From NCBI GenBank assembly GCA_964419495.1, contig CAYQQX010000004.1, positions 5,165-69,164 on the forward strand: 64,000 nucleotides of DNA. The letters are read 5' to 3'. This document shows, piece by piece, positions 44,412 to 64,000 of the stretch. The notes beneath the pieces were generated by a model. That model did no database searches and had not been told where the DNA came from. It saw only the letters and a list, made by a program, of their open reading frames with translations. The stretch is from an uncultured Anaerolineales bacterium. GTDB lineage: Bacteria > Chloroflexota > Anaerolineae > Anaerolineales > UBA11858. Every line of letters begins with the position of its first letter. The stretch's first letter is position 1. The translations under genes were made by a program, and so were the position numbers.

Positions 44412-44419
44412 AGCACCGT

Positions 44420-45797: not shown

Positions 45798-45886
45798 GGT
45801 AATCTCCTTTGATTCTCCTAATGATTGATATGGATTATAGCATTTCAATTAAAAAAGTCGCATGGCCGTACCCATATCGGTGAAGA

Positions 45887-46288
45887 TCATACCTTTTTCA
45901 AGTAGTCTTCAAATTTCTCCAGTGCTTCACCAAACTTGCGGCGTCCAAAACCCATGCGCATGTATTTGTCATCATAGCCCAATGTTGTAGCCGGCTGGAT
46001 CTGGGAAAAGGGCATAATCTTTTTTGATGTTCCCTTTGGGAAAATATTGTAGCTGTGTTGCTTCACCGTTGTCGATGAGTTTTTGAATGCCGTTTGCAGT
46101 TTATAAATTGTAGAGATTGATGACATCTTCCGCGCTAACCATATTCTCACTCTTTGAAATAAGATAAATGTTTGGGTCTCTAGGAATCGCCGTGGTAAGG
46201 TTCCACATTTGCTACCCCCAAATGAGAGGTCTCTCACGGGAATTCCCATAGAACGAAATGTTTTAGTCTCACCGATGAATGGATCCAC
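45887..46288 (-). pseudogene. Uncertain: decayed gene (coding signal spread over two frames)
   Basis: The track ORF has an implausible N-terminus. An alternative frame reads MVSAEDVINLYNL*TANGIQKLIDNGEATQLQYFPKGNIKKDYALFPDPAGYNIG, then joins the track frame (YDDKYMRMGFGRRKFGEALEKF). Confidence 0.3.
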
Positions 46289-46409
46289 TAGGATTGCCCA
46301 GTCAGTATAACGATTCTATCTGGCAATGGCAATATAGCCAATCGATAACGCCACCCTAAAGGATGGCGTTATATCGAAATAGATTCAGTTTGAAAGACAG
46401 TCTTTGGGA

Positions 46410-46670
46410 TCAATCTTTGCCAAGCTGGGCAACAACAAATTTTGCCGCATTAGCCGTCCAATCTCCCTCCCCAGGAACATTTTCTAACCAGGATGATAAC
46501 TCGCTGGGTGTAACAAAATCTCCCAGACGCCCCAAGACATATGCCGCATACCAGCCCGGCCATAGTTCATCGTGAACACCTTTAAGGGCGTTCATTTCAT
46601 ATTCGTGATGGGCATTCCAGGCTGCTTGCAGTGTTTGGTGGAGTTCTTCTTGTGTTGGTTGAGCAGACAT
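46410..46670 (-). CDS. Hypothetical small protein
   Basis: 86-aa ORF (HDELWPGWYAAYVLGRL). No family assigned. Confidence 0.5.
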   Translation of the reverse strand: MSAQPTQEELHQTLQAAWNAHHEYEMNALKGVHDELWPGWYAAYVLGRLGDFVTPSELSSWLENVPGEGDWTANAAKFVVAQLGKD

Positions 46671-46712
46671 TTATTTTCTCCTTCTAAAATATCAGATCCC
46701 TAAACCCAAGGC

Positions 46713-47189
46713 TCACAGGGAATCGCGGTAAACATTGATCTGGGCAACGTGCTCGCGCTTATGCGCATAATTTGTGTACACAACAAAATCATTTAAACAA
46801 TACTCATCGCCGTACCACGGGATCGTGCCATTCTCGCGAAACACCTCGGCGGGAATTTTTTGTGCTATTTCAGCAACAATTGCCTGGGTAGTGGAGTATT
46901 CTTCTAAAATCTCCGCTACACTCATATTCTTGCGCTTGGATACTTCTACATCATTAAAATCTTCGTCTCCCTGGTTGAGATATGCATTTAGCGTCGGCAA
47001 TTCCTCTTCACCCGAGATTGAACTAAGGACATCCTTGAGTAAGTGTTCAAAGGAGATCAAGTGAGCCATGATCTCTTGCACAGACCAGACACCACAAACG
47101 CCTCCGACCCCCCAATACTGTTCGTCTAAATCACTCACTGTGTCGAAAACCATTAAATTTCCATATTTGAGAATGTCATTTACATTCAT
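46713..47189 (-). CDS. DinB/ClbS-like four-helix-bundle protein
   Basis: 158 aa with WSVQEIMAHLISFEHLL and a C-terminal YAHKREHVAQI His pattern. Confidence 0.55.
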   Translation of the reverse strand: MNVNDILKYGNLMVFDTVSDLDEQYWGVGGVCGVWSVQEIMAHLISFEHLLKDVLSSISGEEELPTLNAYLNQGDEDFNDVEVSKRKNMSVAEILEEYSTTQAIVAEIAQKIPAEVFRENGTIPWYGDEYCLNDFVVYTNYAHKREHVAQINVYRDSL

Positions 47190-47508
47190 AATTTTTCTCC
47201 AATCGATGTTGATTCGAAACCGCTAAAGAATGATGCTCAAATGAAAAGACGCACTAGCAGGAGTGCGCCTTACTTGATATTTGAGAGCGTGTCTAATTGA
47301 GGCAGGATTTCAGTTGCTTGGTGGGGTATAAACAGGCGGGGGTATTAGCGTTTTCCTAATAGTACAAACTACAGCATTTTTACTGGCGATAGAAAGTTTT
47401 CCAGAATAATATTTGATTTGAGAATACATCGCATTTTTTGAGTGAAGCAGTGATTTCTAGGAATACGTGGCATGCAATATGTATTCATACAAAAGAGACT
47501 CCTGCTTC

Positions 47509-47742
47509 TCAAAAAACATATTTATATAGCAAGTAAGCAACTATGATCAAAAGTAATATGATAAGAAATAATATCTCATTAAATTTGGTCTCATCAAGTT
47601 TTATATAGCCACGCCTTTCACTTAGCTGGTTGGTTATGTTTACAGCATCAGATTTCCGGAGATTAGGATCTAGTGGTTCTTGTGTGTAGGAGAAATATCT
47701 ATCAGTGGGATTTTCTTGTTTTTCTTGACTATTCTTCGGCAT
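47509..47742 (-). CDS. Possible small membrane protein (very AT-rich)
   Basis: Track ORF 47509..47772 with an internal M at 47742. One C-terminal TM helix (ILFLIILLLIIVAYLLY). Weak coding signal. Confidence 0.25.
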   Translation of the reverse strand: MPKNSQEKQENPTDRYFSYTQEPLDPNLRKSDAVNITNQLSERRGYIKLDETKFNEILFLIILLLIIVAYLLYKYVF

Positions 47743-48031
47743 TGAGTTTTTCCTATAATATAAATAAAACACCCACCGCCATCATCGGGATGAGTGAAAT
47801 TTTCAGAGTTGCCTATTCCATTGTCGCCCCGATGGTGCGGGCTGATATGTTGGGGGCATTATAGCATACTGATATTTACACCATCTATATTTGTGAATAT
47901 CAATGTTAGGAGTTACACAGATGAAGTGAGTAACTCCTAAATATCACAAAAAAATAGGTCAATTTCCATATGAAGATACCATCTGCTCTTTTTTTACTTA
48001 CATGTTCATTAAGTGGACTCCGAAAAGCTCT

Positions 48032-50929: not shown

Positions 50930-53900
50930 TCATTCCCCATTGTGGATCTTGATCGTTCCCGCGTTGCCATCAACGGTGATTGTCTGTCCGCTTTGAATGC
51001 GCTTTGTGGCCACACCCGTCCCCATGACAGCCGGGATGCCGAATTCACGGGCCACGATCGAGCCGTGGCTGAGCGGGCCACCAATATCGGTGACAACTGC
51101 AGCTGCCATTGAAAAGAGCGGCGTCCAAGCAGGGGTAGTGGTGTTTGCAACCAGAACATCACCTGGGCGCATCTGATCAAAATCCTCGGGGCCAAGCAGG
51201 ATTCGGGCTGGGGCTGTCACACTGCCAACACTGGTCGGCTCGCCTTTGAGCGTATCTCCTGTCTGCGACTCTCCCGTTTGTGCGATAAAAAGATCTGACT
51301 TGATGCCCATCATTCTTTCTTTGTAAGGTAGCATCGGGGGCGGAGTCTCATCTTTTGCGCGTTGCCAAAAATCCCTGCGTTCGGAAACGTGCCCCGCCAA
51401 TTTATCTACGCCTATGTCACTTTCCAGGTTCGCCACACAAAGATCAATCTCTTCCTTCTCCAGCCAAAAGACATCGTCCCTGGCGGTGATTGCTCCTGCG
51501 GAGACAAATCGATCTCCTAACTCGCGTAGCAGCTGGCGCAATTTGGGGAACGCCAATCCAATTTCTGCGATGGCGTCCTCGCGGACTTCGGCCATTTTTT
51601 GTCCCCAATTGAGCGCAGTGCGGAAGATCCAACCTTTAAGGCCCTTGACACGCCCCAGCATCTCCTGGGAAGTCTGAATTCGGATGGCTTCGTTCTTACG
51701 CTGACGTTCATAGGGGTTGCTGCCTTGGCCGCTGAGATATAGCTTGACCATTTCGAGCATCGGTTCAGGGTGATCAAGGGGTAGGTCATAGGCAAAGTCC
51801 ATTTGATAGATGATGTGACCAAACTGCTTCAGATGTTGATTGAATTTCTTTTGCAGCGCTTCAAATTCTTCGCAGTCGACCTCGGCGGGTGGACTACCAG
51901 CAGCGAGGAGTTTTGCAAGTGTTGTGGTGGGTGTCTGTTGGATATATGTGTTGAGAGCGGCTCTCTCACGGCACCACATGGCCAGATCGTAGAGCGACTT
52001 TTCTGAATGAATGGTGATGTTGTCCCAGCCCATCAAAAGCACGGTAGCGCTGGGGGCACCATCGTTTTGCGCCATTTTTTTGTAAACTCTAGTGAGCAGT
52101 CCTTCTGAACCTGCAGAGGCTCCCATGGTGGCAAACATAATTCCGCATAGATATGTCATCGCTTCGGCCACGATCTCTTGGGCTTGTGCCCAAAGATCGG
52201 CGACAGATAATTCACTGGGAACTATTTTTTCTATCTCTGCCGCATAGGCCTGGTATTCTGGGTGCAGCTCATCTCGCCAAATGGGGACAAGATTCTTGAG
52301 CAGTTTTGGATAGGCGGGCAGCATGCGCGTCAGCAGCCACCAGAAAGCTTTGGGCGGGTACGTTGAGTTCATGTAAGCATACGTGTTGATCTCAGTGAAG
52401 TAATCTTCTGCCAAAACGGGCTCTGAGCCCAACAAGCGTTTCCCGATTACGGGCATTTGTTGCTTGAAGGTGGGAATTCCCAACGTTAAGTAAAGCGGGC
52501 TCAGCGGGTCAGGCATTAAATCGACGATGCTGGCCCGCACGTAAGTGCCCTTAGGAGTAGGGGGTGCCCATTCGATGGCAGGGGCTTGGTCAGAATCCGG
52601 GGACGAGTCTGGGACGTCCAGCAGCACCGTTCCGTTGGTACCGTCGACAGTAATGGTCTGTCCATCCTGGATGCGCTTGGTTCCCACGCCTGAGCCCATC
52701 ACGGCGGGGATGCCGTATTCGCGCGCCACAATCGAGCCGTGGCTGAGCGGTCCGCCAACATCCGTGACCACCGCGGATGCCATGGCAAAGAGCGGCGTCC
52801 AGGCAGGCGTAGTCGTGGCCGCGACCAGCACATTGCCAGGTTTCATCTTGCCAAAGTCGGCGGGGCTGAGCAGTACACTGGCAGGCGCTGTCACAATGCC
52901 GGCACTCGTCGCCATACCGCTGAGAGTATCGCCCGCTTGTTCCTCGTCGGAGCCATGCACAAAGTGATCGGTTTTCATCCCTTTGACCCTTTTCTTCTTA
53001 GGGATGATGGGCGGCGGGGGCGAGTGGCTTACTCTTCCCGAAAATGCTTTGCGTGAATCCACACGACCCGAGAGACTCTCGGCGGTATTCCCGCTTTCAA
53101 GTTGCGCCAAGCTACCTTCAATTTCATCTTTCTCCAACCAGAAGATATCGTCTTTGTGTTGGACCCCGCCTGCATCGGCCAGACGCTGTCCCAGTTCGAG
53201 CAGCATGGCTCTCAATTGGGGATACCCGAGCCCGAGGTAGGCCAGGGCGTCATCGCGTGCTTCGGCGTTCGATTGGGCATAGTTGAGGGCCTTGGTAAAT
53301 GCCCACAGCCTGAAGCCTTTCAGACGCTGGAGTATGGCTTCCGTAGTCTCGACGCGCTTTGCTTCGCTGTTCTTCTGGCGCTGGTGTGGATCAGTTCCCT
53401 CACCGCGCAGGTACATCTTGATTATTTCCAGCATTGGCTCGGGATGTTCCAGCGGCAGCGGTTCGGCAAAGTCCAACGAGTAAATGATGTATCCATAGCG
53501 ATCCAAGTGAGATTGGAACCGGGAATCAAACTCGTCCCGTTGATCGATATCATCTCTCGAAGATCGTTGGGCCAATTCCTCTGTGGATGTCTCTAGAATA
53601 TGTCTGGCTAATTCATCGTGTTCTTTGATCCACATTGCCAGATCGAAAAGTGATTTTTCGGCCTTGACCGGGACGTTGTCGTAACCCATTAACAAAGTTG
53701 CTGCGGGCGGGTCTCCCTCACCCTGGGCCATTTTTTCGTAAACGCTTGTTAGAATGCCCTCAGAGCCGGCTGAATTTTTCATGGTGGAGTAGCGCAGCCC
53801 AGCCAGGTAATACATGGCCGCATCCAGAATTTCTTGCACATCTGTCCAAATTTCGTTTGAACTCATTTCGCCAGCCACTTTGTCTTTGTAAGCGGCGATC

Positions 53901-55189
53901 TTCTCTTGATATTCGGGCAGCATTTCATCTCGCCACATGGGAAGCAGGCGCATGATGCGCATAGTTGAGGGCAGCAGCCCGGTAAAGATCCAACGCACAG
54001 CTTCCGTGGGCACAGTTGTATTCATGTAGGCATAGCCGTTGATGGCCGTGAAATAATCCTTAGCAAAGGCCGGCTCGGAGCCCGTAATGCGCTCCGTCAT
54101 GGGGTAGGTTTGCTCAATCAATGCTGGCAGCCCTAAGGAAGCAAATAAAGGGCTCAACGGATCGGGCATCAGGTCGACGGCGCTGGTGCGCAGATAAACG
54201 CCCTTTGGATCAGGCGGCGACCAATCCAGGGGCGGATCGGGCAAAGCGGTTACCGGGCGCGCCTGCACGATGGCGAATTCGCCATCGGTCAGTGTCCACT
54301 CGATGTCCATAGGTATGCCATAAATTATTTCGATTTGATTTCCCAATTCTGTCAACTCAGCCGCCTGTTCATCGCTGAGGGCGGGGATATTTTGCAGATG
54401 TTCGGGAACGGGCTGTGTCTCAATACCGGAGTCTGTGGGCGCGGTTTGGATGCGTTTGGGGGCTAGCTCGCGGTTGATCACTGCACCCGAAGTTTTTTCT
54501 ACCGTGAAGGTGTCTGGCGTGACCTGACCTCCCACAATGGCTTCACCTAATCCCCAGGCGGCGTTGATCACGGCTTCGGCGCGCTGCCCGTTGAGCGGGT
54601 TGGCGGTGAACATGATCCCGGCTACCTCGGCGGGGATCATCGACTGCACAACCACGGCTAAGGCCACACCTTCAGACTCAATTTCTTGCCGCATGCGGTA
54701 GCCGATGGCGCGCCCTGTCCATAGCGAGGCCCAGCACTTTCTGACCGCCTCCAGAACTGCTTCTGGGCCGCGGACATTCAGGTAGGTTTCCTGCTGACCG
54801 GCAAAGGATGCCTCGGGTAAGTCTTCGGCAGTAGCCGACGAACGCACCGCCACAGCAGGGGAGTCAGTGCTGATTTGCGCATAGCCATCAAGGATGGCAT
54901 CTGCCAGGGATGGGGAAATCTCTCCAGCCAAGAACAGCTCATGGATTTCTTGAGATGCCGTCTCCAATGTTTGGGGGCTGGATAGATCTATGGGCGCAAG
55001 CGCACGCCGAATTCCAGGTTGCAGTTTGTTTTCTTTCACAAACAAGCGGTAAGCGTCTGTGGTGATGTGAAATCCGCCCGGAACCGGTAATCCGCCTCGG
55101 ATCAAGCGGGCCAGGGAAGCTCCTTTACCACCGACTGTTTCCAGCGTGGCTGCGGCGTTATCGAGGGGCAGTGTGTATTGATTAATCAT
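50930..55189 (-). CDS. Giant PEP-utilising (PEP synthase / rifampicin-phosphotransferase-like) enzyme: ATP-grasp head + two tandem [central + His-swivel] modules
   Basis: Start at M18 of the track ORF, behind GGAGA. PPDK_N motifs GGKGASLARL...PVPGGFHITTDAY. Two swivel domains carry GGPLSHGSIVAREYGIPAV and GGPLSHGSIVAREFGIPAV. The two ~550-aa units align end to end. Confidence 0.85.
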   Translation of the reverse strand: MINQYTLPLDNAAATLETVGGKGASLARLIRGGLPVPGGFHITTDAYRLFVKENKLQPGIRRALAPIDLSSPQTLETASQEIHELFLAGEISPSLADAILDGYAQISTDSPAVAVRSSATAEDLPEASFAGQQETYLNVRGPEAVLEAVRKCWASLWTGRAIGYRMRQEIESEGVALAVVVQSMIPAEVAGIMFTANPLNGQRAEAVINAAWGLGEAIVGGQVTPDTFTVEKTSGAVINRELAPKRIQTAPTDSGIETQPVPEHLQNIPALSDEQAAELTELGNQIEIIYGIPMDIEWTLTDGEFAIVQARPVTALPDPPLDWSPPDPKGVYLRTSAVDLMPDPLSPLFASLGLPALIEQTYPMTERITGSEPAFAKDYFTAINGYAYMNTTVPTEAVRWIFTGLLPSTMRIMRLLPMWRDEMLPEYQEKIAAYKDKVAGEMSSNEIWTDVQEILDAAMYYLAGLRYSTMKNSAGSEGILTSVYEKMAQGEGDPPAATLLMGYDNVPVKAEKSLFDLAMWIKEHDELARHILETSTEELAQRSSRDDIDQRDEFDSRFQSHLDRYGYIIYSLDFAEPLPLEHPEPMLEIIKMYLRGEGTDPHQRQKNSEAKRVETTEAILQRLKGFRLWAFTKALNYAQSNAEARDDALAYLGLGYPQLRAMLLELGQRLADAGGVQHKDDIFWLEKDEIEGSLAQLESGNTAESLSGRVDSRKAFSGRVSHSPPPPIIPKKKRVKGMKTDHFVHGSDEEQAGDTLSGMATSAGIVTAPASVLLSPADFGKMKPGNVLVAATTTPAWTPLFAMASAVVTDVGGPLSHGSIVAREYGIPAVMGSGVGTKRIQDGQTITVDGTNGTVLLDVPDSSPDSDQAPAIEWAPPTPKGTYVRASIVDLMPDPLSPLYLTLGIPTFKQQMPVIGKRLLGSEPVLAEDYFTEINTYAYMNSTYPPKAFWWLLTRMLPAYPKLLKNLVPIWRDELHPEYQAYAAEIEKIVPSELSVADLWAQAQEIVAEAMTYLCGIMFATMGASAGSEGLLTRVYKKMAQNDGAPSATVLLMGWDNITIHSEKSLYDLAMWCRERAALNTYIQQTPTTTLAKLLAAGSPPAEVDCEEFEALQKKFNQHLKQFGHIIYQMDFAYDLPLDHPEPMLEMVKLYLSGQGSNPYERQRKNEAIRIQTSQEMLGRVKGLKGWIFRTALNWGQKMAEVREDAIAEIGLAFPKLRQLLRELGDRFVSAGAITARDDVFWLEKEEIDLCVANLESDIGVDKLAGHVSERRDFWQRAKDETPPPMLPYKERMMGIKSDLFIAQTGESQTGDTLKGEPTSVGSVTAPARILLGPEDFDQMRPGDVLVANTTTPAWTPLFSMAAAVVTDIGGPLSHGSIVAREFGIPAVMGTGVATKRIQSGQTITVDGNAGTIKIHNGE

Positions 55190-55248
55190 TTCTATCTCCA
55201 AAAATACTATCAAAACGAACGATGGTCGCTTCTGTTGCAAAAAAATAT

Positions 55249-55842
55249 CTATGCCTGGATTCCTTTGAAGAAAATTTCCAGGGCATCCTCGAGCATTTCT
55301 TCCGGGCTGCCTGCGGGACGTGTGGTAAAGACAACCGGAGTCATAATGGCTAATAACGATTTCATTGCCACCGCGGCATTGATAGGCCGGATGCTGCCCT
55401 GGGCGATGCCCTCTTCAAGTAATTCGACCAGCATATCTTGGTAGGCGTATCGTTTAACCTGGTATCGCTGCTGACTCTCAGCGCTGAGGCTTTGTGCTGC
55501 CATAAAGAGCTTTAGGATGAAAGCCTTATCGCGCAGCAAAATTTCCAGGTGCATAAACATTACTTTTCTTAAACGCGTGAGTACATTTCCACCTTCTGCG
55601 ATGATCTGTTCGGCGCCTAGGTTGAGTTCATTGAGAGGCTCATCGAGTAAATAGAGAATAATTTCATCCTTGGTGGGAAAATAATCGTACAGGGAAGATT
55701 TACCCATGGAAGCAGCTTTTGCTATCTGGCTGACAGAGGTTTCAGTGAAACCATTCTCGAATATTAAGTCCGCGGCGATGTGTGCGATCTCTCGGCGCCG
55801 TTCTTCTCTTTCTTCTTTTGTGAGGGGAATACCTTTAGGCAT
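55249..55842 (-). CDS. TetR/AcrR family transcriptional regulator
   Basis: Start taken at M24 of the track ORF. HTH FTETSVSQIAKAASMGKSSLYDYFPTKDEI. Lies 59 nt upstream of the giant gene on the same strand. Confidence 0.85.
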   Translation of the reverse strand: MPKGIPLTKEEREERRREIAHIAADLIFENGFTETSVSQIAKAASMGKSSLYDYFPTKDEIILYLLDEPLNELNLGAEQIIAEGGNVLTRLRKVMFMHLEILLRDKAFILKLFMAAQSLSAESQQRYQVKRYAYQDMLVELLEEGIAQGSIRPINAAVAMKSLLAIMTPVVFTTRPAGSPEEMLEDALEIFFKGIQA

Positions 55843-56052
55843 AATTATGTCCTTTGAAACCGACCGTTGGTCGCTACTAGTGTATGCGATGTTGATTTTT
55901 GGCATACCCATATTATTTAGGGGTTGTATAAATTTATTTGACGATATTTGTCATGGTTTTATAGAGTATGTATATCGCATTCGACAGTTGTGAGCGTGAT
56001 AGAATGATGGTATCCATAGTTTCTCTTTGGTCGAATAAAATAGGAAATTACC

Positions 56053-57684
56053 ATGGCAACAAACGAAACCCTCAATTTGGGTGAAAAACTTTCTGACCTC
56101 GTTTTTTCCGTTCCAGTACGTATTAAAATCACCGGGATCATGATATTGCCGATAGCGATTTTAGGCTTGGCGCTTAATTATTGGATCCAGACAGGGCTTT
56201 CTGACTGGCTGTCATACTTATTGACGGATGAACGCGTTCAAATGGCCATGCAGGCTGGCAGCCGAAGTGTGAGTCTGGTAACCATGTTGTCGGCAGGTGC
56301 ATCAATTCTTTTGACCTCTCTCTTGATGTTGTCACTCACCAAACCTTTGCTGGAATTACGACAGGTTGCCCAGCGGGTAGCAGATGGCGATTTCGCTTCG
56401 CGAGCCAGGATATGGGTTCAAGATGAGATAGGGGAGGTAGCCCGAACGATCAATCTCATGCTGGATCGACTGGTTAGCAGTCAGGAAAAGCTAGAACGCA
56501 GCAACCGGCGCTTAGAGGCAATCAACCAGGTTGCTCTCGCGGCTGGTAAAGAGCTGGAACTTCAGGATGTTCTAGATGCATCTCTTAACTCGACGCTGAA
56601 TGTTTTTGGACTTGAAAGTGGCTGGATCTATATGCGCGATCCAACAGACCCGGGCGGGAGAAGTTTTCATCTGGCCAGCGCGGTCGCCTTACATGCTGAG
56701 TTGTATGCAGATATCACGGATGATTCGAAAGAAGTGTGTACATGCAAGCGTGGTCTGACGGGCAATGAAGTTGGCGCAGATGCACAAATTAACGTTTGTG
56801 CGAGATTGAAATTGTTAGTTGATGACTCGCACCAGGAAATTTTCCACATCACGATCCCCCTAGAGGCGCGTGCAGAACGATTTGGGATGATCAACCTGGT
56901 TTGTTTAGAAGATTCAAAACCATCGGAAAATGACATCGATACGCTGACCACCATTGGCGCACAAGTATCTGAATTAGTTGCCAATGCCTGGCTGCACGCA
57001 AGCTTGAAAGAAAAGGAAGCTGCGCGGCAAGGATTGCTGACGGCACTGGTAAACGCGCAGGAGAACGAGCAGGCTCGATTAGCTAGAGAACTGCATGATG
57101 ATGCGGGTCAGAGTCTAACCAGTTTGTTAATCCGCTTGAAAACCCTGGAGAATCGCGCCACTAGTGACGACATTCGGAGTAGCGTAGCTGAGTTGTGTAC
57201 AACAACTTCCGAAACAATTGAAAAAGTTCGCGGGGTCTCTCACCGTCTTCGACCAGCAGCATTAGAACAATTGGGCCTCGAAGTGGCTCTGCGCACTTTG
57301 GCCGAAGAAATGCTTGACGATATTGGTGCAAGTGTGGACTGCCAATTTCATCTGGATGGCAAGCGTTTTCCATTCGAGATCGAAACCAATTTGTATCGCA
57401 TTACCCAAGAAGCCCTGACGAACGTTGTCAGGCATGCTGGGGCTAAGAACGTTATCATAGAACTAGCAGTACAGCCCTTTGCGATTGGATTGCGCATTGA
57501 AGATGACGGTGTTGGGTTTGAAACCGACAAAATAACTACGAAAGAAACCCGACATCGCTTGGGCTTGATCAGTATGTTGGAGAGGGCGGAGATGTTGGGA
57601 GGATCAGTAGTATTCGATTCGGCTCCTGGTAAGGGAACCGCGCTAAATATTCATATCCCATATGATGTTGAGGATGAGTCTTAA
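56053..57684 (+). CDS. Sensor histidine kinase: 2 TM, HAMP, GAF, HisKA_3, HATPase_c (NarX/LiaS-type)
   Basis: 543 aa. HAMP VADGDFASRARIWVQDEIGEVARTINLMLDRL, H-box ARELHDDAGQSLT, and an ATPase part with EALTNVVRHAGA and DDGVGF. Confidence 0.9.
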   Translation: MATNETLNLGEKLSDLVFSVPVRIKITGIMILPIAILGLALNYWIQTGLSDWLSYLLTDERVQMAMQAGSRSVSLVTMLSAGASILLTSLLMLSLTKPLLELRQVAQRVADGDFASRARIWVQDEIGEVARTINLMLDRLVSSQEKLERSNRRLEAINQVALAAGKELELQDVLDASLNSTLNVFGLESGWIYMRDPTDPGGRSFHLASAVALHAELYADITDDSKEVCTCKRGLTGNEVGADAQINVCARLKLLVDDSHQEIFHITIPLEARAERFGMINLVCLEDSKPSENDIDTLTTIGAQVSELVANAWLHASLKEKEAARQGLLTALVNAQENEQARLARELHDDAGQSLTSLLIRLKTLENRATSDDIRSSVAELCTTTSETIEKVRGVSHRLRPAALEQLGLEVALRTLAEEMLDDIGASVDCQFHLDGKRFPFEIETNLYRITQEALTNVVRHAGAKNVIIELAVQPFAIGLRIEDDGVGFETDKITTKETRHRLGLISMLERAEMLGGSVVFDSAPGKGTALNIHIPYDVEDES

Positions 57685-58346
57685 TGACAGAAACACTTAT
57701 GCGCGTAATTTTGGTGGATGACCATCAGGTTTTACGAGAGGGTTTGCGTGCTCTCTTGGATGAAGAAGACGATATCCAGGTTGTTGCAGAAGCCGGCTCC
57801 GCAGATGAGGCCATAAAACAGGTTGTAGCCCATGATCCTGATATCGTGGTCATGGATCTGGGATTGCCCGACCGAAGCGGGTTAGATGCCATTAGACAAA
57901 TCCGGGCGGAGGAATATCCGGTGCGTATCATTGTGCTCTCCATGCACAGCGGACGTGAATTGGTCATGCAAGCTCTACAAGCTGGCAGCGATGGGTATGT
58001 GCCCAAATCATCGGCCCATACTGATCTACTGCAGGCTATTCGTGCCGTTCACCAGGGCAAACGCTTTTTGCACCCCGATGCGGCGACTGCAGTGGTTGAT
58101 GAGTTGCTTGAAAGGCAAGCCGAAGCCCAAATGCTGGAAAGCCTCTCTGAGCGAGAAACGGAAGTCTTGCGGCTGACCGCCATGGGATACACCAGCAGAG
58201 AAGTTGGGGACAAGTTGTCCTTGAGTCCAAAAACCGTTGACACGTACCGTCAACGGGCAATGGAGAAGTTGGATCTCAAACACCGTTCCGAAGTGATCCA
58301 ATTTGCATTGAAGGCTGGATTACTGGATGACATCGATCAAATCTAA
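57684..58346 (+). CDS. NarL/FixJ-family response regulator (receiver + LuxR HTH)
   Basis: 220 aa. Contains ILVDDHQVLREG and DIVVMDLGLPDRSG, with a C-terminal LSERETEVLRLTAMGYTSREVGDKLSLSPKTVDTYR. The start overlaps the kinase stop (TAATG). Confidence 0.9.
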   Translation: MTETLMRVILVDDHQVLREGLRALLDEEDDIQVVAEAGSADEAIKQVVAHDPDIVVMDLGLPDRSGLDAIRQIRAEEYPVRIIVLSMHSGRELVMQALQAGSDGYVPKSSAHTDLLQAIRAVHQGKRFLHPDAATAVVDELLERQAEAQMLESLSERETEVLRLTAMGYTSREVGDKLSLSPKTVDTYRQRAMEKLDLKHRSEVIQFALKAGLLDDIDQI

Positions 58347-58386
58347 CTTTGTCAGAAATTCCCTTACAAAAACAAGGTGTATTCCT

Positions 58387-58434
58387 GATAGATATAGAAC
58401 GATCAATTTGCTACGATAGAGATACACGCTGATC
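58387..58434 (+). promoter_or_regulatory. Direct repeat in the rdhA upstream region (candidate response-regulator site)
   Basis: GATAGATATAGAACGATC (58387-58404) and GATAGAGATACACGCTGATC (58415-58434), with repeat starts 28 nt apart, 17 nt upstream of the rdhA ATG. The functional link is inference. Confidence 0.3.
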
Positions 58435-58450
58435 TGTTTAGGAGACTTTA

Positions 58451-59842
58451 ATGGTAGATAGACGCAAAAATCCAATTAGCCGCAGAGATTTCTTGCGCAT
58501 TGCGGGATTATCCGCTTCAACGATTGCAACTGGAAATCTTTCCTCGGTGCCAAGTTTAGACTATTGGGCTCCAGATAATGTAGAAGGCGGGAATGCGCGC
58601 CCCTGGTGGGTGCGCACTGTCGATGAGCCAACAACTGAAGTAAACTGGGACAATGTAAAACGCTTCGATGCTCGTCGCACTGTGAGAGGGCAAGGCTTGG
58701 CCGAGTATATTGGACAGGATGAGGCGGATCGACTGAGCCAAATCAGAAGCCAAGTCCGAAAAAATCGTTTGGAAAATAATGTTCCCGGGTACACATTGAA
58801 GGATGAAGCGCTTAGTGCAGCACAGTCTACACACACTATTGGCAGCCGATCTTTCCTTGGACCTCAAAAAACCAAAACACCAGCTGAACGAGGTGTTTCA
58901 AATTGGGTTGGGACAGCCGATGAAGCTGCTCAAATTTTGCGATCAGCGATGCGCCATTTTGGTGCTGCTACTGTAGGGTTTGTCGAGCTCAATAAGAATA
59001 CTCGCAAACTAACTTATTCCTACGATCCGGATGAAAAAGAAATCGTTTTCGAAAACGTTGACGAAGCCTATGAAACTGACCAAAAGCGAGTGATTCCGGA
59101 CAAGGCAAAGTGGATGATCGTATTTACTGTTCAAATGTCATCAGAAAGCTTGAAGCGAGCCCCGACAGTGGTCGCTGAGCAAACGACAAGGTTATCCTAT
59201 GCCCGAGCTTTAGATATTCAAAACAAAACCCAAGAGTTCTTGCGTGGGTTGGGGTATCAGTGTTTGGGACAGGCCAGCAGCAATGCATTAGGCATCTCGC
59301 CCGCATTTGCCGTCTTGGCCGGATTAGGGGAGCTGGGACGGCACAACCGCTTGATTACGCCAGAATTTGGCCCCATGGTGCGCGTGTTCAAAATGATCAC
59401 TGACCTGCGAGTTCAACCGGATAAACCCATTGATGCCGGGATATTGAAATTTTGCCAGCACTGTAAAAAGTGCGCTGAAGCCTGTCCGGCCAGTGCTCTG
59501 AGTCTCGATGATGAACCGTCTTGGGAAATTCAGGGAGACTGGAATAACCCTGGCCATAAAGCCTATTTCGAAGACTCGATAAAGTGCCGAACATATCAAT
59601 GGGAAAGTGCGGGAACCAATTGCGGCATTTGTTTTGCCGTATGCCCCTTTGCAAAGAAAAACAAGGTTTGGATCCATCAGTGGGCAAAAGCGGGTATTTC
59701 CACATTCCCAGTGATAGATGGCTTACTCCGCAGTATGGATGATGCTTTCAGTTATGGGGCGCAAAAAGACCCGGAAGCATGGTGGGGTTTGGATCTGCCT
59801 GAATATGGCATCGATACAGAACAAACCACGAACGATGAATAA
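58451..59842 (+). CDS. rdhA: Reductive dehalogenase catalytic subunit homolog, Tat-exported
   Basis: 463 aa. Twin-arginine signal SRRDFLRIAGLSAS, RPWWVRTVD, LGELGRHNRLITPEFGP, and Fe-S motifs CQHCKKCAEACP and CGICFAVCPF. Confidence 0.9.
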   Translation: MVDRRKNPISRRDFLRIAGLSASTIATGNLSSVPSLDYWAPDNVEGGNARPWWVRTVDEPTTEVNWDNVKRFDARRTVRGQGLAEYIGQDEADRLSQIRSQVRKNRLENNVPGYTLKDEALSAAQSTHTIGSRSFLGPQKTKTPAERGVSNWVGTADEAAQILRSAMRHFGAATVGFVELNKNTRKLTYSYDPDEKEIVFENVDEAYETDQKRVIPDKAKWMIVFTVQMSSESLKRAPTVVAEQTTRLSYARALDIQNKTQEFLRGLGYQCLGQASSNALGISPAFAVLAGLGELGRHNRLITPEFGPMVRVFKMITDLRVQPDKPIDAGILKFCQHCKKCAEACPASALSLDDEPSWEIQGDWNNPGHKAYFEDSIKCRTYQWESAGTNCGICFAVCPFAKKNKVWIHQWAKAGISTFPVIDGLLRSMDDAFSYGAQKDPEAWWGLDLPEYGIDTEQTTNDE

Positions 59843-60071
59843 CCGCGAAAACGACGATTGTAAAGATTTTATCTTGATCGAGCGCAGACCTTGGTATGAG
59901 TGGGTATTGTGGGGATTTTGGGTGTTTCTGGAAATCATATTTTTCCAGGCCGCAGTTGCCAGCAGCAAAGAGCTTGAACCTCGGGCAGCGATAGTATTCT
60001 GGTTGCTTTTTGGCGTATTTTTGCTGGGGGGAATTACAGTTTGGATCATTCGCCGTGAGCGACTGATCTGA
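59835..60071 (+). CDS. rdhB: RdhB-like small membrane anchor
   Basis: ATG at 59835 overlaps the rdhA stop by 8 nt. 78 aa with two TM helices. RPWYEW...SSKELEPRAA resembles the RdhB pattern as I recall it. Confidence 0.65.
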   Translation: MNNRENDDCKDFILIERRPWYEWVLWGFWVFLEIIFFQAAVASSKELEPRAAIVFWLLFGVFLLGGITVWIIRRERLI

Positions 60072-60160
60072 AACATAAACTTCTGACGACAACAAAAAAC
60101 GCTAAACATGACACATCTCGGAATTAATTGAATTAGTCAATGGAAGGTTGAACAAATCTG

Positions 60161-60221
60161 CCCCCCTAACCCCCCAACCCTTCGATATCACTCAGGGCAA
60201 GCCTTGGGAGGTTAGGGGGGG
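60161..60221. repeat. GC-rich palindromic repeat (same family as 13290-13372)
   Basis: Arms cccccctaaccccccaa (60161-60177) and ttgggaggttagggggg (60204-60220). The core cccttcgatatcactcagggcaag matches the reverse complement of 13331-13360. Confidence 0.75.
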
Positions 60222-60263
60222 CTTACTCCCGAATACTCTTTTCATCTGCGTAACTCCAAATTT

Positions 60264-60386
60264 CAGTAGATCACGATTTTGTGTCATTGCGAGGCGTTTC
60301 ATGCCGAAGCAATCCCCCTCTAAAGGGTGGAGATTGCTTCACTCCGTTCGCAATGACATCCATAATTGGGAATCTGTGATCTACTG
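60264..60386. repeat. 123-bp nested inverted-repeat (MITE-like) element
   Basis: Outer 11-bp inverted repeat cagtagatcac (60264-60274) / gtgatctactg (60376-60386). Inner arms gtcattgcgaggcgtttcatgccgaagcaatc / gattgcttcactccgttcgcaatgac. Confidence 0.7.
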
Positions 60387-60558
60387 AATTTATTTAATAT
60401 GGAGTGCCTAATATTTTGTTTGTCAGGTAAACCCCTACAAATCAGGGGGCTTTTCCCGCTACACCGAAATGCCCCCCTTTGCTAAGATGATAGTGCAATA
60501 ATTCACTCATCATCGCTCCCGTCGCAAGTGCAGACGTGTACGTGCAGAGGACATCTTT

Positions 60559-62325
60559 ATGAAGCGCTTTTTTGGAAAAATCCGCCGATTTTTCTATCCA
60601 GCACCGGAAGCCTCTCGCTGGGTAAAACTCCTTCCCTATGCAGTCCTAATTGCCCTATTTGTTATCGTCCTGATTGCAGGTGCCTACGCCTGGGACTATA
60701 CCAACTCCACAGAATTTTGCGGTTCAGCCTGTCACGGCATCCACCCTGGGGAAATCCTTGCCTATCAGACCTCGCCCCACGCAGAAGTCAAGTGTGTCGA
60801 ATGCCACATCGGGCGCGCCTTCATTGGTAACCAGGTCTCTCGAAAAATTGGGGAATTCCGGCATTTCACTGCGGCTGCGTTCAAGAGTTATGAATACCCC
60901 TTACATGTCAAAAGCCTAAGACCTGCCAGAGAGGTTTGTGAGCTTTGTCATAACCCAGATAAGTTTTCCGACGACAGCCAACGGGTAATCCATCACTATG
61001 GTTCGGATGCGGATAATACGCTGGAGAGGACGTATCTGGTCATGAAAACCGGTGGAGGCACCGTACGCCAGGGCCTGGGGGATGGTATCCATTGGCATAT
61101 CAAAAATAAGGTGCTTTATTACCCAACGGACGAAACCGAGCAAGAAATACCCTTTATCAAAGTTTTTGATGAAGAGTACAGCGCCGTGTATGAATACGTC
61201 GATGTCAGTTCAGATTTTAATCCTTTTTCAATTGATGAATCGGATCTCAAGGAAATGGACTGCATCACCTGTCATAACCGTATCTCTCATTTCTTCCCCA
61301 ATCCCGAAGAAGCGGTCGATAGCGCCCTTTCGCGAAATCTAATTTCTAGCGAAATACCTGAAATTCGACGTAAAGCTGTCGAGGTTTTAAACGCCTCCTA
61401 TGAGTCGAAAGAAAAAGCCCTCAGGGATATCGATGTGTTGCGAAATTACTATCGGGACAATTATGCTGATTACCAGCAGGACCACATCGATGAGATCGAT
61501 CAGGCAATCAAGGCTATTAAAGATATTTACAAGCAAAGCGTATTCCCTGACCAATTAGTGGATTGGAATACGCATCCCAATAATCTGGGACACATGAATG
61601 ACCCTGGGTGCTTCCGCTGCCATGATGGCAAGCATTTGGATATTGCAGGATACGCCGTTCGCCTGGAGTGTAATTTATGCCATGCCATCCCGGCGATCAC
61701 AGGGCCTGAAGATCTAGAAACCCAGATACTCATCAGCCATGAGCCGCAGCCTAAAAGCCATCACAATCCCAACTGGATTGCCCTGCATCGCTTCGTCTAT
61801 GACGAGGTGGATGAAAATGAATACTGCAGCGAGTGTCACGATGTGAGCAATTTTGGGGAAGCCGATAACTCATCTTTTTGCTCAAATTCCGCCTGCCACC
61901 ACCAAACCTGGGAGAACGTTCAACTAGATTTCCTTGATAATGGTGATGTATTCGAAAAGATTGTGCGTCAGTTATCCCATTATCCGACGACATTAGATCC
62001 AATCGCGGCCTGGGTGGAAGAACCTGACCTTGATGAGATCCACAGGGAACAGGAAGAAATGCTCTGTGAGGATTGTCATACCGAATGGCCACCCATGGGA
62101 CCACCATCCAACGAGATTTGCATCGAATGTCATGGGGAGAGCCTGACTGGGTTTGAAGAACTAACCGCCATGTACGAACCCAACCCGCATGACTCGCATT
62201 ATGGAGAAGATTACCCTTGTGCTGAGTGTCATCCCAATTTCAGCCCCATGGAACCGGTTGAATCTTGCGCCTTTTGTCATGTGATGGAAGATATCAAATT
62301 AATCGAAGAAACATCTTCTCAATAG
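60559..62325 (+). CDS. Membrane-anchored multihaem cytochrome c with NapC/NirT/NrfH-like N-terminus (up to 12 haems)
   Basis: 588 aa with an N-terminal TM helix. Ten CxxCH motifs (CVECH, CELCH, CITCH, CFRCH, CNLCH, CSECH, CEDCH, CIECH, CAECH, CAFCH), plus CGSACH (Cx3CH) and CSNSACH (Cx4CH). Confidence 0.85.
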   Translation: MKRFFGKIRRFFYPAPEASRWVKLLPYAVLIALFVIVLIAGAYAWDYTNSTEFCGSACHGIHPGEILAYQTSPHAEVKCVECHIGRAFIGNQVSRKIGEFRHFTAAAFKSYEYPLHVKSLRPAREVCELCHNPDKFSDDSQRVIHHYGSDADNTLERTYLVMKTGGGTVRQGLGDGIHWHIKNKVLYYPTDETEQEIPFIKVFDEEYSAVYEYVDVSSDFNPFSIDESDLKEMDCITCHNRISHFFPNPEEAVDSALSRNLISSEIPEIRRKAVEVLNASYESKEKALRDIDVLRNYYRDNYADYQQDHIDEIDQAIKAIKDIYKQSVFPDQLVDWNTHPNNLGHMNDPGCFRCHDGKHLDIAGYAVRLECNLCHAIPAITGPEDLETQILISHEPQPKSHHNPNWIALHRFVYDEVDENEYCSECHDVSNFGEADNSSFCSNSACHHQTWENVQLDFLDNGDVFEKIVRQLSHYPTTLDPIAAWVEEPDLDEIHREQEEMLCEDCHTEWPPMGPPSNEICIECHGESLTGFEELTAMYEPNPHDSHYGEDYPCAECHPNFSPMEPVESCAFCHVMEDIKLIEETSSQ

Positions 62326-62335
62326 GAGAAAAAAT

Positions 62336-62518
62336 ATGTTTGGACTGGGTCCTACCGAATTAATCATCATTCTCGTAATTGTCATTGTTCTGTTTGGTGT
62401 GGGTCGCGTGAGCAAAATTGGTGGAGAGCTAGGGTCTGCAATCCGAGAATTTCGAAAAGGCGTCTCACGCGACGATGAGACAGATGCCGAAGAATCAACC
62501 CAAGAGGCAGCAGGTTAG
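62336..62518 (+). CDS. tatA: Twin-arginine translocase subunit TatA
   Basis: 60 aa. MFGLGPTELIIILVIVIVLFGVGRVSKIGGELGSAIREFRKG. Confidence 0.9.
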   Translation: MFGLGPTELIIILVIVIVLFGVGRVSKIGGELGSAIREFRKGVSRDDETDAEESTQEAAG

Positions 62519-62561
62519 ATGACAGTCACTTAGCAAGTGACTGTCATCTCGAGGTTTTTTT
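62518..62561 (+). terminator. 13-bp perfect hairpin plus T7 tract between tatA and tatC (partial terminator/processing or translational element)
   Basis: gatgacagtcact (62518-62530), loop tagca, agtgactgtcatc (62536-62548), then tcgagg and ttttttt (62555-62561) directly before the tatC ATG. GAGG at 62551-62554 would be the tatC RBS. Confidence 0.45.
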
Positions 62562-63332
62562 ATGACCACCGAAGAACAAGCAAATTTAGCCGAAGGTATC
62601 AGTCAAAAGCGTCAGGCTTTTTGGGGGCACATGGAGGAGCTTCGCCGACGATTGTTAAAGGCGGTGATAGTGCTGATCCTCGCTTCAGGGGTTAGTTTAG
62701 TTTTTGTAAAACGTGGATTAGAGTTCTTGCTGCTTCCTATGGGAGAAAACCGACCCGTCGCCCTTCACCCAACTGAGTCGATCGTTGTTTATTTCCGCAT
62801 CGCACTGATGCTGGGCTTGGTGATTGCCATGCCGGTGATGGTTTACCAGGTATTGGCATTCTTTGTGCCCGCGCTGACCCGCAGCGAGCGCAGGGTGCTG
62901 CTGACCTCTGTGGTTGGCATTGGCATCTTCTTTGCGCTGGGCGTGGCGTTTGCAGGTGGGGTGATGCTGCCCTTGGCGATCAATTATTTGCAGGGCTTCA
63001 TGGATGATCTGGTTCAGCCGACATATTCGATTGATGGCTACGTCTCATTCGTTACGACAGTGATGATCAGCAGTGGTGTGATATTCGAAACTCCCTTGTT
63101 ATTGGCCTTAGTCGCTCGCATGGGCCTGGTCACATCAAAGCAATTAGCTAAGGGTAGGCGCTTTGCTCTGGTCGCCATCGCCATCATCGCGGCAGTAATT
63201 ACGCCAACGCCAGATATGTTCAATATGCTGCTCGTGATGGCGCCCCTTTTGGTGCTTTATGAACTTGGCATTGTGCTGGCCTGGTTTGCTGGACGAGCGC
63301 GCGAGAGAGCATTAGCCGAGGTCGGAGTTTGA
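62562..63332 (+). CDS. tatC: Twin-arginine translocase subunit TatC
   Basis: 256 aa, six TM helices, with a typical TatC N-terminus (FWGHMEELRRRLLKAV). Confidence 0.9.
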   Translation: MTTEEQANLAEGISQKRQAFWGHMEELRRRLLKAVIVLILASGVSLVFVKRGLEFLLLPMGENRPVALHPTESIVVYFRIALMLGLVIAMPVMVYQVLAFFVPALTRSERRVLLTSVVGIGIFFALGVAFAGGVMLPLAINYLQGFMDDLVQPTYSIDGYVSFVTTVMISSGVIFETPLLLALVARMGLVTSKQLAKGRRFALVAIAIIAAVITPTPDMFNMLLVMAPLLVLYELGIVLAWFAGRARERALAEVGV

Positions 63333-63341
63333 GGTATTGAT

Positions 63342-63554
63342 ATGAAATTCTTTAGCTTAGGTGCTAGTGAATTAATACTGATTTTGATTTTTGCCATTTT
63401 GGCAGTTGGGCCTAAAGAAACCATTCGCTTAGCCAGTCAGGCTCGCGACGCAATTGGGACCGTCCAAAAAGCTTTCAACGAATTATCGGGTGAAGTATCG
63501 CGCATGGCCTCAGATGTTGTCAGCGATATTAACGAGACTGAGAAGAAAAATTGA
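63342..63554 (+). CDS. tatB: TatA/TatB-family subunit (TatB-like)
   Basis: 70 aa. MKFFSLGASELILILIFAILAVGPKE, then an amphipathic helix. GP after the TM is as in TatB. Confidence 0.7.
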   Translation: MKFFSLGASELILILIFAILAVGPKETIRLASQARDAIGTVQKAFNELSGEVSRMASDVVSDINETEKKN

Positions 63555-63600
63555 AGTTAGTGATCGTTTGCGATCACCTTTAGAGAATGGAGGCAAAGAT

Positions 63601-64000
63601 ATGAAAAAAATCCTAATTACCGCATTATTGTTAACAGCGACCGTTTTTTTGGTTGCCTGTGGCGGGGGCGGTGGGCAGAGTGATGAGATCATCATGGATG
63701 AGCCCGTACCCAAAGGGGCTGAAGATGCCTTTTTGGTCGAGCTGGAGTTCTCTGCTGAAGAGATTGTCCCAAATCACATTACCATTCCCGCTGGAGAAAA
63801 GATCTACTTCGTCGTCTATAACAGTGACATCGCAGAAGGCGACATGAATGAAGATCACAACCTGGTCAGCCCTGATCTTGGGTTGCGTGAAATTCTGGTT
63901 GTCCCCGGCCAAACTGTGCGCCGCATCTGGGATGGCTACGATGTCCCCGGTACATATAAAGTTGGCTGCACGATCCACCCCTGGATCGTTATGGAAATCA
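63601..64000 (+). CDS. Lipoprotein cupredoxin (type-1 copper protein), 3' end off the window
   Basis: Absent from the track because it is open at the right edge. ATG at 63601 behind GGAGG. Lipobox FLVAC. Cu ligand pattern EDHN ... GCTIHPWIVM (H, C-x2-H-x4-M). Confidence 0.75.
   Translation, partial: MKKILITALLLTATVFLVACGGGGGQSDEIIMDEPVPKGAEDAFLVELEFSAEEIVPNHITIPAGEKIYFVVYNSDIAEGDMNEDHNLVSPDLGLREILVVPGQTVRRIWDGYDVPGTYKVGCTIHPWIVMEI

Follow-up and report, generated by a model that had tools for sequence, protein, structure and literature searches.

A dodecahaem cytochrome c gene set between two reductive dehalogenase gene pairs in uncultured Anaerolineales: a candidate haem route to RdhA beside an exchangeable copper module

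How electrons reach RdhA, the catalytic subunit of reductive dehalogenases, across the potential gap between menaquinol and cob(I)alamin is the main open question in organohalide respiration, and it concerns enzymes that reduce both pollutant and natural organohalides. Two architectures are established: the quinone-free complex of Dehalococcoides, and a direct menaquinol-RdhAB complex, for which RdhC or NapGH-like helpers are unproven. To our knowledge, c-type cytochromes are absent from Dehalococcoides, and we know of no corrinoid dehalogenase that accepts electrons from c-type haems, which is the acceptor relationship proposed here. The subject of this work is a gene for a membrane-anchored dodecahaem cytochrome c, found next to rdhAB in a stretch of 64,000 nucleotides (nt), hereafter the window, on contig CAYQQX010000004.1 of an uncultured marine Anaerolineales bacterium. 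A sequence-only reading of this DNA had reported rdhAB, the cytochrome, twin-arginine translocation (Tat) genes and a cupredoxin gene together on the plus strand, and all of them are present there. It had also proposed that quinol electrons could reach RdhA through haems and copper, by a route never described. This novelty needs tempering, since a path from menaquinol through Qrc and type I cytochrome c3 to RdhA has been hypothesised for Desulfoluna (PMC7031245), with no genetic linkage to rdh. In full-text literature searches, neither a NapC/NrfH-headed multihaem cytochrome nor cupredoxins turned up as members of a described rdh cluster.

Our reading, to which we assign a probability of roughly 0.55, is that the cytochrome serves two RdhAB enzymes as a dedicated electron-transfer partner under common regulation. 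Genetically locked to rdhAB, and combining a quinol-dehydrogenase-like head, a low-potential c3-like tail and an upstream motif shared with rdhA1, it is a concrete candidate for a haem route. The genes in the window are the left half of a larger conserved island, which the window end cuts. The same contig, identical, is present in several metagenome assemblies (L001-L004), and beyond the window end (L001) it carries rdhA2/rdhB2, a Zn-ribbon gene, a gene for a 663-amino-acid (aa) fusion of a CuA-type cupredoxin and a NapH-like protein that we call CuNapH, a DUF4418 gene, and a MacB/FtsX permease with its ATPase. Related loci add a lipoprotein beta-propeller and a COX2-like cupredoxin further on. 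With the parts that vary in parentheses, the order of the island is histidine kinase, response regulator, rdhA1B1, cytochrome, (tatA), (tatC-tatB), (cupredoxin), rdhA2B2, Zn ribbon and (CuNapH and the genes that follow it, or a NapG-like/NapH-like pair). In this comparison, the invariant core is the histidine kinase-response regulator pair, rdhA1B1, the dodecahaem cytochrome and rdhA2B2, and its constant element the cytochrome between two rdhAB pairs.

The cytochrome gene occupies positions 60559..62325 (+) and encodes 588 aa; its assignment draws on Pfam, NCBIfam and PDB profile matches and on synteny. The clade to which it belongs (580-596 aa, with a c3-type tetrahaem end and cytochrome identities from 88% down to 47%) was gathered by a metagenome scan specific for the C-terminus, from one locus of a genome scan (L005) and by direct look-ups. 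For each locus 10 kb on either side were inspected, and P0002 was compared through its gene table. All the organisms compared are uncultured. Because some loci are near-duplicates (L088-L091; L099, L100 and L173), lineages were counted rather than contigs. In all clade members with upstream DNA, which make up about 13 lineages (the window with L001-L004, P0002, L088, L092, L094, L096, L098, L099/L100/L173, L101, L169, L174 and L005), the cytochrome gene follows rdhA(B) at a distance of 150-490 nt, and every locus that reaches far enough downstream has another rdhA after the cytochrome. The check that the sequence-only reading had asked for, synteny with rdhA in relatives, comes out in favour of the cytochrome, which always stands right after rdhA(B) and, in loci that reach that far, ahead of a second rdhAB. 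Beyond the island the neighbourhoods vary: narHJI and major facilitator superfamily genes are found there in P0002, recA with RNase Y in L174 and, in the window, a PEP-utilising gene.

The wider cytochrome family has more than 7900 matches, nearly all of them in Anaerolineae/Chloroflexota, and relatives are present in at least 594 GTDB species representatives. At 79 of the 80 best GTDB-genome loci the relative is a paralogue of ~565 aa, similar mainly to the first ~450 residues and, unlike the c3-tailed clade, ending in PSCyt1/CBB3-type domains. Neither rdhA nor tatC nor a cupredoxin gene was found within 10 kb of this paralogue (0 of 79 loci). By their gene content, its neighbourhoods appear to be those of respiratory housekeeping genes: at 47 of the 79 loci (L006-L084) genes for a ~398-aa multihaem cytochrome c and a Ni_hydr_CYTB-type b cytochrome adjoin it, as they do at L165:5605-12758 and L166:1115-9695, and at 16 of the 79 Rieske/cytochrome b genes adjoin it too. 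As a separate observation, the paralogue, the ~398-aa multihaem protein, the b cytochrome and, in many cases, Rieske/cytochrome b together have the appearance of a bc-type complex with multihaem additions, so far undescribed, in Anaerolineae. The sequence-only reading had admitted that the cytochrome, tat and cupredoxin genes might turn out to be housekeeping neighbours, conserved in relatives lacking rdhA; this is so only for the ~565-aa paralogues, which have another C-terminus, and for the rdhA-free copper modules described below, and not for the c3-tailed clade.

The second line of evidence is upstream of the genes. The cytochrome-tat unit has a conserved promoter region of its own with the same motif as rdhA1, and therefore we argue for co-regulation. 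The motif is a 21-nt imperfect palindrome, TGTCAG-N7-CnTACAAA, present twice in the window as a candidate operator: the first copy, TGTCAGAAATTCCCTTACAAA (58350..58370, +), starts 101 nt upstream of the rdhA1 ATG, and the second, TGTCAGGTAAACCCCTACAAA (60421..60441, +), ends 117 nt upstream of the cytochrome ATG. It was found 94-140 nt upstream of the cytochrome ATG at all 14 of 14 loci and about 80-100 nt upstream of rdhA1 at 7 of 12; L171, a sister cluster of RdhC type, has it before rdhA as well. The background, 2.57 Mb from unrelated Anaerolineae loci, contains no exact occurrence and two with one mismatch or fewer. Further on, at 60444-60495 in the window and at the equivalent place in 13 related loci, a half-site-like TTTCCyGCTACA is followed by TGCTAnnAT, which resembles an extended -10 element; together with the motif, these would form a conserved promoter architecture upstream of the cytochrome. 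The candidate binder of the motif is the adjacent NarL-type regulator encoded at 57684-58346.

The spacer between rdhB1 and the cytochrome gene measures 487 nt. It had been described as 490 nt filled with repeats, which made co-transcription doubtful; repeats there are, nested and inverted and not direct. The block at 60148..60400 (no strand assigned) is a lineage-specific insertion with two strong palindromic hairpins (inverted repeats I1-I5; minimum free energy -104 kcal/mol, z = -8.2) and looks like an inserted palindromic element, similar to miniature inverted-repeat transposable elements or repetitive extragenic palindromes. The related loci have spacers of 150-230 nt with no hairpin insertion. 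As to the doubt about co-transcription, then, the hairpin block belongs to one lineage, the spacers of its relatives are shorter, and the shared motif argues for co-regulation. The rdhB-cytochrome spacer showed no terminator in a simple scan, a blastn search of the spacer against plasmids gave no match, and dispersed repeats of the GTCATTGCGAGG type were represented by one copy only in the window. Apart from this, a partial second copy of the GC-rich palindrome arm CCCCCTAACCyCCCAA lies in another intergenic region, at window positions 13291-13309, so that the two copies possibly belong to a family of dispersed short palindromic repeats.

The predicted cytochrome has a transmembrane helix (residues ~22-44), an NrfH-like head, a haem-rich middle and an Fcc3/c3-like tetrahaem C-terminal domain (~498-574). 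The sequence-only reading had counted 12 haems, and 12 sites there are; ten of them are CXXCH, one is CX3CH (54-59) and one CX4CH (441-447). In the alignment with 19 orthologues, no change is seen in any of the 12 haem motifs, nor at 13 further histidines. The NapC/NirT resemblance noted for the N-terminus covers the transmembrane helix and the first two haems and does not go beyond them: PF03264 scores 30.1 bits (cut-off 24.1) over profile positions 9-99 of 174, that is, the helix and haems 1-2, and in a PDB profile search NrfH (2j7a) matches residues 33-88 (E = 3e-5). At the other end, the tetrahaem domain of Shewanella Fcc3 (1qo8) matches residues 498-572 (E = 8e-4). In L170 the large cytochrome is absent and a free c3 protein of 100 aa precedes cupredoxin-rdhAB-CuNapH; with residues 501-563 of the window cytochrome it shares 44% identity (E = 2e-17). 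This free c3 protein before rdhAB suggests that, of the whole cytochrome, the tetrahaem tail is the part specific to rdh.

The island also shows which parts can be missing. The cupredoxin is absent from L098-L100 and L173, and L101 has no tat genes. L174 lacks tat, cupredoxin and CuNapH, and its cytochrome still lies between two rdhAB pairs. In L173 and L174 a plain NapG-like/NapH-like pair follows rdhA2B2 at the place where others have CuNapH. Two sister clusters, L171 and L172, with RdhA 59-60% identical and the same histidine kinase-response regulator front, have a classical RdhC (FMN_bind + Fer4_5) after rdhAB; with RdhC in the slot of the cytochrome, this slot is therefore a place for electron-transfer accessories. 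Among the Pfam-annotated island loci (L001-L004, P0002, L169, L173 and L174), FMN_bind is on record for no gene. Since tat and cupredoxin genes are dispensable and the synteny is strict for the cytochrome, the haem link is supported and the copper link is not. Thus, of the proposed path through haems and copper, the haem part finds good support in comparative genomics, and the link of the cytochrome to rdhAB is well supported at this level; the copper part is not supported, as the cupredoxin is dispensable and the module occurs without rdhA, which leaves a link that is weak and thermodynamically awkward.

The cupredoxin of the window (63601..64000, +; PF13473) is a lipoprotein of 137 aa in full, of whose gene the window end removes the last 14 nt. 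The full protein, taken from L001, scores 34.5 bits against PF13473 (cut-off 27), and the lipobox and the plastocyanin-type ligands H...C-x2-H-x4-M are kept in 13 orthologues, those of rdhA-free clusters included. By fold profile and ligand set it is predicted to be a type-1 (blue) copper protein. CuNapH (L001:16201-18192; TIGR04244, Fer4_5) is a membrane protein. Its N-terminal domain resembles the CuA domain of NosZ/COX2 (TIGR04244, E = 6e-14; motif H...C-x3-C-x3-H-x2-M), and the remainder carries Fer4_5 motifs of the NapH/NosR/RdhC type (25.6 bits, cut-off 22) and a ferredoxin-type cysteine cluster; the NapH model TIGR02163 gives 18 bits with a cut-off of 213. Homology of CuNapH to RdhC was considered and rejected, as BLASTP gave a similarity at motif level only (E about 0.04), and we keep it as an analogy. 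Likewise, a split clade-III, lactonase-type N2O reductase (L-NosZ) was rejected as an identity for the copper module, both for its low scores (best NF052460 score 44.6 bits, cut-off 700) and because the beta-propellers are not homologous from one phylum to another.

Copper modules of this type are also found free of rdhA. In Desulfurispirillum indicum (CP002432, L167:3290-11364) such a module is arranged around a dihaem protein of the MauG/cytochrome c peroxidase (CCP) type, with two type-1 cupredoxins, a beta-propeller, DUF4418, MacB/FtsX and ATP-binding cassette (ABC) components, a CuA::NapH-like fusion and a COX2-like cupredoxin. Desulfuribacillus stibiiarsenatis (L168:7362-11373) has the cupredoxin-dihaem-fusion-COX2-like part of it, again with no rdhA. 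The propellers belong to different families in different phyla, PQQ_2/BamB-like in the Chloroflexota locus L088 and YNCE-like in D. indicum, and are not homologous. The module is independent and portable, since it is present without rdhA in other phyla and can be swapped for NapGH-like genes. At the DUF4418 position L170 has a protein similar to LpqE/PCuAC (PF04314; L170:12194-12616), and from this replacement the cysteine- and methionine-rich DUF4418 protein may be a membrane copper-handling protein. Copper centres are normally several hundred mV above the potential that RdhA needs. Given these potentials and the exchangeability of the module of which the cupredoxin of the window is a part, it is unlikely to be a direct donor to RdhA. 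In the island, copper proteins are thus associated with a corrinoid enzyme.

Taken together, the following scheme can be proposed. The NarL-type regulator would act on the shared 21-nt motif before rdhA1 and before the cytochrome gene, which would be separate, co-regulated transcription units. The RdhA precursors would be exported, in most lineages by the TatA-TatC-TatB-like set encoded in the cluster, and RdhB would anchor RdhA at the outer face of the membrane. The cytochrome, held by its single N-terminal helix, would draw electrons from menaquinol or from a NapH-type partner through its NrfH/NapC-like head, and the electrons would pass along about 12 low-spin haems to the C-terminal Fcc3/c3-type tetrahaem domain, which would reduce the iron-sulfur (FeS) clusters of RdhA. 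Beside this core there would be a further membrane module that can be exchanged: a NapGH-like pair, or the CuA::NapH-like fusion with small cupredoxins. The window cupredoxin, as a part of the latter, probably does not take electrons directly to RdhA. In this scheme, quinol oxidation, docking to RdhA and the direction in which electrons flow are our inferences from sequence comparison.

Several points weigh against this reading, whose basis is solely comparative genomics of uncultured organisms. The NrfH equivalog TIGR03153 gives 41.5 bits and its cut-off of 134.2 is not reached. Haem 1 is CGSACH, a CX3CH site followed by G-I, so that the CXXCHxM of NrfH type is not kept in the window protein: the methionine after haem 1 is replaced by isoleucine, and it is M in the clade consensus. 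With this partial similarity to NrfH, the CX3CH site at haem 1 and the change from methionine to isoleucine, quinol oxidation by the head is no more than putative. An AlphaFold2 model of the cytochrome, made from the 19-sequence alignment, reached a predicted local distance difference test (pLDDT) of 54.8 and a predicted template modelling score (pTM) of 0.36, too poor for the geometry of a haem wire or for docking. At 5 of the 12 loci the 21-nt motif is missing before rdhA1. Furthermore, whatever the carrier, electrons have to go uphill from menaquinol (-75 mV) to reach Co(II)/Co(I) at about -360 mV (PMC7031245), and the structure of PceA2B2 shows that RdhAB alone can accept menaquinol electrons (PMC10624902), so that a further donor is not indispensable.

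This last point leads to the possibility that RdhAB is self-sufficient, as is PceA2B2 of Desulfitobacterium, and that the cytochrome, the NapH-type and the copper modules are co-regulated with it for another purpose, such as scavenging of O2, peroxide or other oxidants that protects the oxygen-sensitive RdhA at oxic-anoxic interfaces, balancing of the quinol pool, or service to another periplasmic acceptor. The PceA2B2 structure, with menaquinone bound directly at the RdhA/RdhB interface (PMC10624902), speaks for it, as do the rdhA-free copper modules of Desulfurispirillum and Desulfuribacillus, placed beside a MauG/CCP-type, peroxidase-like dihaem protein. Copper potentials, normally far too high to reduce RdhA, also agree with it, and several of the contigs apparently come from redox-stratified water-column metagenomes, to judge by sample names only. 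However, the cytochrome clade is never found apart from rdhAB, even where copper and tat genes are missing (L174); a free homologue of the c3 tail precedes rdhAB in L170; the upstream motif is common to the cytochrome and rdhA1; and no oxidase or peroxidase genes were seen in the Chloroflexota islands. On balance, we hold that RdhAB with accessories of unrelated purpose is unlikely, and it is the alternative that we take most seriously.

A little less probable, in our opinion, is that the cytochrome is a quinone-independent inlet that wires electrons of the outer face straight to RdhA, as a haem counterpart of the Dehalococcoides complex; the sources could be a bc-type complex, a periplasmic hydrogenase or formate dehydrogenase, reduced sulfur or iron species, or extracellular donors. 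A window protein that does not keep the CXXCHxM signature of the NrfH-type quinol site would fit such an inlet, and so would the paralogues, which are encoded with Rieske/cytochrome b and other multihaem proteins and not as a stand-alone quinol dehydrogenase. In addition, the L173 island holds an extra multihaem protein of 569 aa, and many Anaerolineae encode large multihaem cytochromes, read as extracellular electron-transfer proteins (10.1101/2021.08.23.457424). On the other side, none of the islands examined was seen to contain genes for a hydrogenase, a formate dehydrogenase or a bc complex (in L005 there are Rieske and cytochrome b matches about 8 kb upstream, on the opposite strand), the N-terminal transmembrane helix and haems 1-2 do align to NrfH, and putative quinol dehydrogenases of NapH type are regular in the island.

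A more far-reaching idea, to which we give little weight, would add a third type to the organohalide respiratory chains, with two branches of quinol oxidation, a low-potential one of haem and FeS and a high-potential one of copper. The hard electron for Co(I) would come from the dodecahaem wire, the c3-type domain and the FeS clusters of the NapH-like protein, and the CuA domain on the NapH-like protein and the type-1 cupredoxins would take or deliver the easy one. If true, such a Q-cycle-like arrangement would allow menaquinol (-75 mV) to drive a cofactor at -360 mV with no separate machine for reverse electron flow. Finally, mere coincidence of position, with the cytochrome, tat and cupredoxin as housekeeping neighbours of rdhAB, deserves hardly any credence: the very large related cytochrome family is housekeeping-like in Anaerolineae without rdhA nearby, and some islands lack the tat genes or the cupredoxin, but synteny contradicts it, since the c3-tailed clade is found only in rdhAB islands, at 47-88% identity, with differing flanks and a shared motif.

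RdhA and RdhB are here ordinary family members, and the new element is the accessory wiring. The rdhA1 gene (58451..59842, +; PF13486, TIGR02486, PceA match) encodes a Tat-exported catalytic subunit of 463 aa, with 127.6 bits for PF13486 (cut-off 24.3) and 288.7 bits for TIGR02486 (cut-off 160.35). In a profile search of the PDB the closest solved structure was PceA of S. multivorans (4uqu_A, E = 3e-54), and 8q4h_A, annotated as a tetrachloroethene reductive dehalogenase, also matched (E = 5e-41). RdhA1 has a twin-arginine motif, SRRDFLR, at residues 10-16 and two FeS motifs, CxxCxxCxxxCP at residue 335 (CQHCKKCAEACP) and CxxCxxxCP at residue 391 (CGICFAVCP). Its stop overlaps the start of rdhB1 (ATGA). 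The small membrane anchor RdhB1 (59835..60071, +; 78 aa, or 88 aa from an alternative start at 59805) has two hydrophobic transmembrane helices and an ELE motif of the ExE type. It was identified from gene calls and a precomputed VcrB Pfam annotation marked as weak; a Pfam scan of the 117-aa open reading frame (ORF) at 59718-60071 and Pfam and NCBIfam scans of the 78-aa protein gave no match.

The product of rdhA2 is 52% identical to RdhA1 and has the Tat motif TRREF; within the island, twin-arginine signals were seen on the two RdhA precursors only. Directly before rdhA2 there is a cobalamin riboswitch (RF00174; L001:13695-13882, about 250-440 nt past the window end), and the same is found in other lineages (L085:3486-3730, L092:12191-12364, L094:7930-8113 and L099:11563-11778), with 39-61 bits, above the gathering score. 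A cobalamin riboswitch directly before rdhA2 is unusual, because the product of the gene depends on B12 and does not serve its synthesis or uptake. Within the window, an Rfam search of positions 58000-64000 gave no match at E <= 0.1. Further downstream in L169 (L169:17389-20530) a second cobalamin riboswitch is followed by genes for a BtuF-like binding protein, FecCD and ABC components, which would be corrinoid uptake attached to an rdh island. For corrinoid-dependent dehalogenation as the putative activity, the riboswitch before rdhA2 and this BtuF/FecCD-type transporter give indirect support only.

The first gene of the island encodes a sensor histidine kinase (56053..57684, +; HAMP-GAF-HisKA_3-HATPase by Pfam), found at the same place in all related loci, and the next a response regulator of the NarL/LuxR type (57684..58346, +; Response_reg and GerE HTH domains, assigned from Pfam and synteny). 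Downstream of the cytochrome come tatA (62336..62518, +; PF02416, 50.4 bits), tatC (62562..63332, +; PF00902, 190 bits) and a tatB-like gene of the TatA/B family (63342..63554, +; precomputed PF02416). The full TatA-C-B set that had been proposed is thus sound for tatA and tatC; the third gene belongs to the TatA/B family and scores below the NCBIfam cut-offs, with 28.6 bits for TatB (TIGR01410, cut-off 56.5) and 31 bits for the TatA/E model (cut-off 77). Its N-terminus, SELILI...VGPKE, with a glutamate and a GP motif, resembles TatB by eye. Between tatA and tatC, at window positions 62517-62549, lies a perfect 15-bp hairpin followed by a T-run, similar to a terminator or attenuator, which could set the TatA:TatC expression ratio.

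Elsewhere in the window there are other features. Before the island, on the minus strand at 50930-55240, an ORF of 1436 aa (1419 aa in the public gene call of L001) has a PPDK_N domain and two Rph_4th/PEP-utilizers repeats; its halves look by eye like an internal tandem duplication, and a TetR regulator (55249-55911) comes next after it. A tyrosine recombinase gene is found at 42104-43024 (- strand), and G+C content is lower at 14000-18000 and 44000-48000 (0.41-0.45, compared with about 0.49). The recombinase gene and the low-G+C stretches may be horizontally acquired segments.

The cytochrome occurs in a widespread clade of uncultured marine and groundwater Chloroflexota, which ties dehalogenation to lineages and habitats beyond the classical dehalogenators. 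The idea is directly testable, as the proteins are small enough to be expressed. Among described cytochromes, the relevant systems of the NapC/NirT/NrfH type are NrfH-NrfA, the Shewanella path from CymA to Fcc3/STC, and that of E. coli, where NapC and NapGH serve NapAB. The island cytochrome is predicted to be like them in its single N-terminal transmembrane helix, in haems on the outer face and in a terminal tetrahaem donor similar to Fcc3/STC, and E. coli Nap also unites a NapC-type cytochrome and a NapH-type module in one system with a Tat-exported acceptor, NapA. It differs in that head and tail are fused in one protein of 588 aa and 12 haems, with ~six haems between them, and from NrfH also in the CX3CH of haem 1 and a score far under the equivalog cut-off.

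With respect to known dehalogenase clusters, PceA2B2 of D. hafniense (PMC10624902) and PceA of S. multivorans (4uqu) have the same Tat-exported RdhA with a corrinoid and two [4Fe-4S] clusters and the same small RdhB of ExE type, and in clusters of this kind two-component or other local regulation is also usual. For the PceA2B2 operon no cytochrome, cupredoxin or tat genes are reported, whereas here the dodecahaem cytochrome is invariant, and RdhB1 has only two transmembrane helices. The PceMN of S. multivorans (PMC4585668), a NapGH-like putative quinol dehydrogenase beside rdhAB that was proposed as a link to the quinol pool, is similar to the pair in L173 and L174. In the lineage of the window, by contrast, the NapH-like protein carries a fused CuA-type cupredoxin domain and is accompanied by further cupredoxins, and there is in addition the multihaem cytochrome with a NapC/NrfH head. 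RdhC/PceC, of the NosR/NirI family (PMC5928378), occupies the same slot after rdhAB in L171 and L172 and has the CX3CP Fer4_5 motif in common with CuNapH; however, the periplasmic domain of CuNapH is a CuA-type cupredoxin instead of FMN_bind, and the pairwise similarity is insignificant (E about 0.04). The quinone-independent Hup-OmeAB-RdhAB complex of Dehalococcoides (PMC6005880) also belongs to Chloroflexota and delivers electrons to RdhAB through dedicated proteins; no OmeAB or Hup genes were seen in the island, where a multihaem cytochrome is central instead. A parallel in electron transfer is the route hypothesised for Desulfoluna, in which a low-potential tetrahaem donor of c3 type is likewise put before a periplasmic RdhA so as to span the step from menaquinol to Co(II)/Co(I). 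There, Qrc and the cytochrome are components common to sulfate reducers and unlinked to rdh, whereas in the present case the rdh island itself encodes the c3-type domain, either joined to a membrane anchor or free, as in L170.

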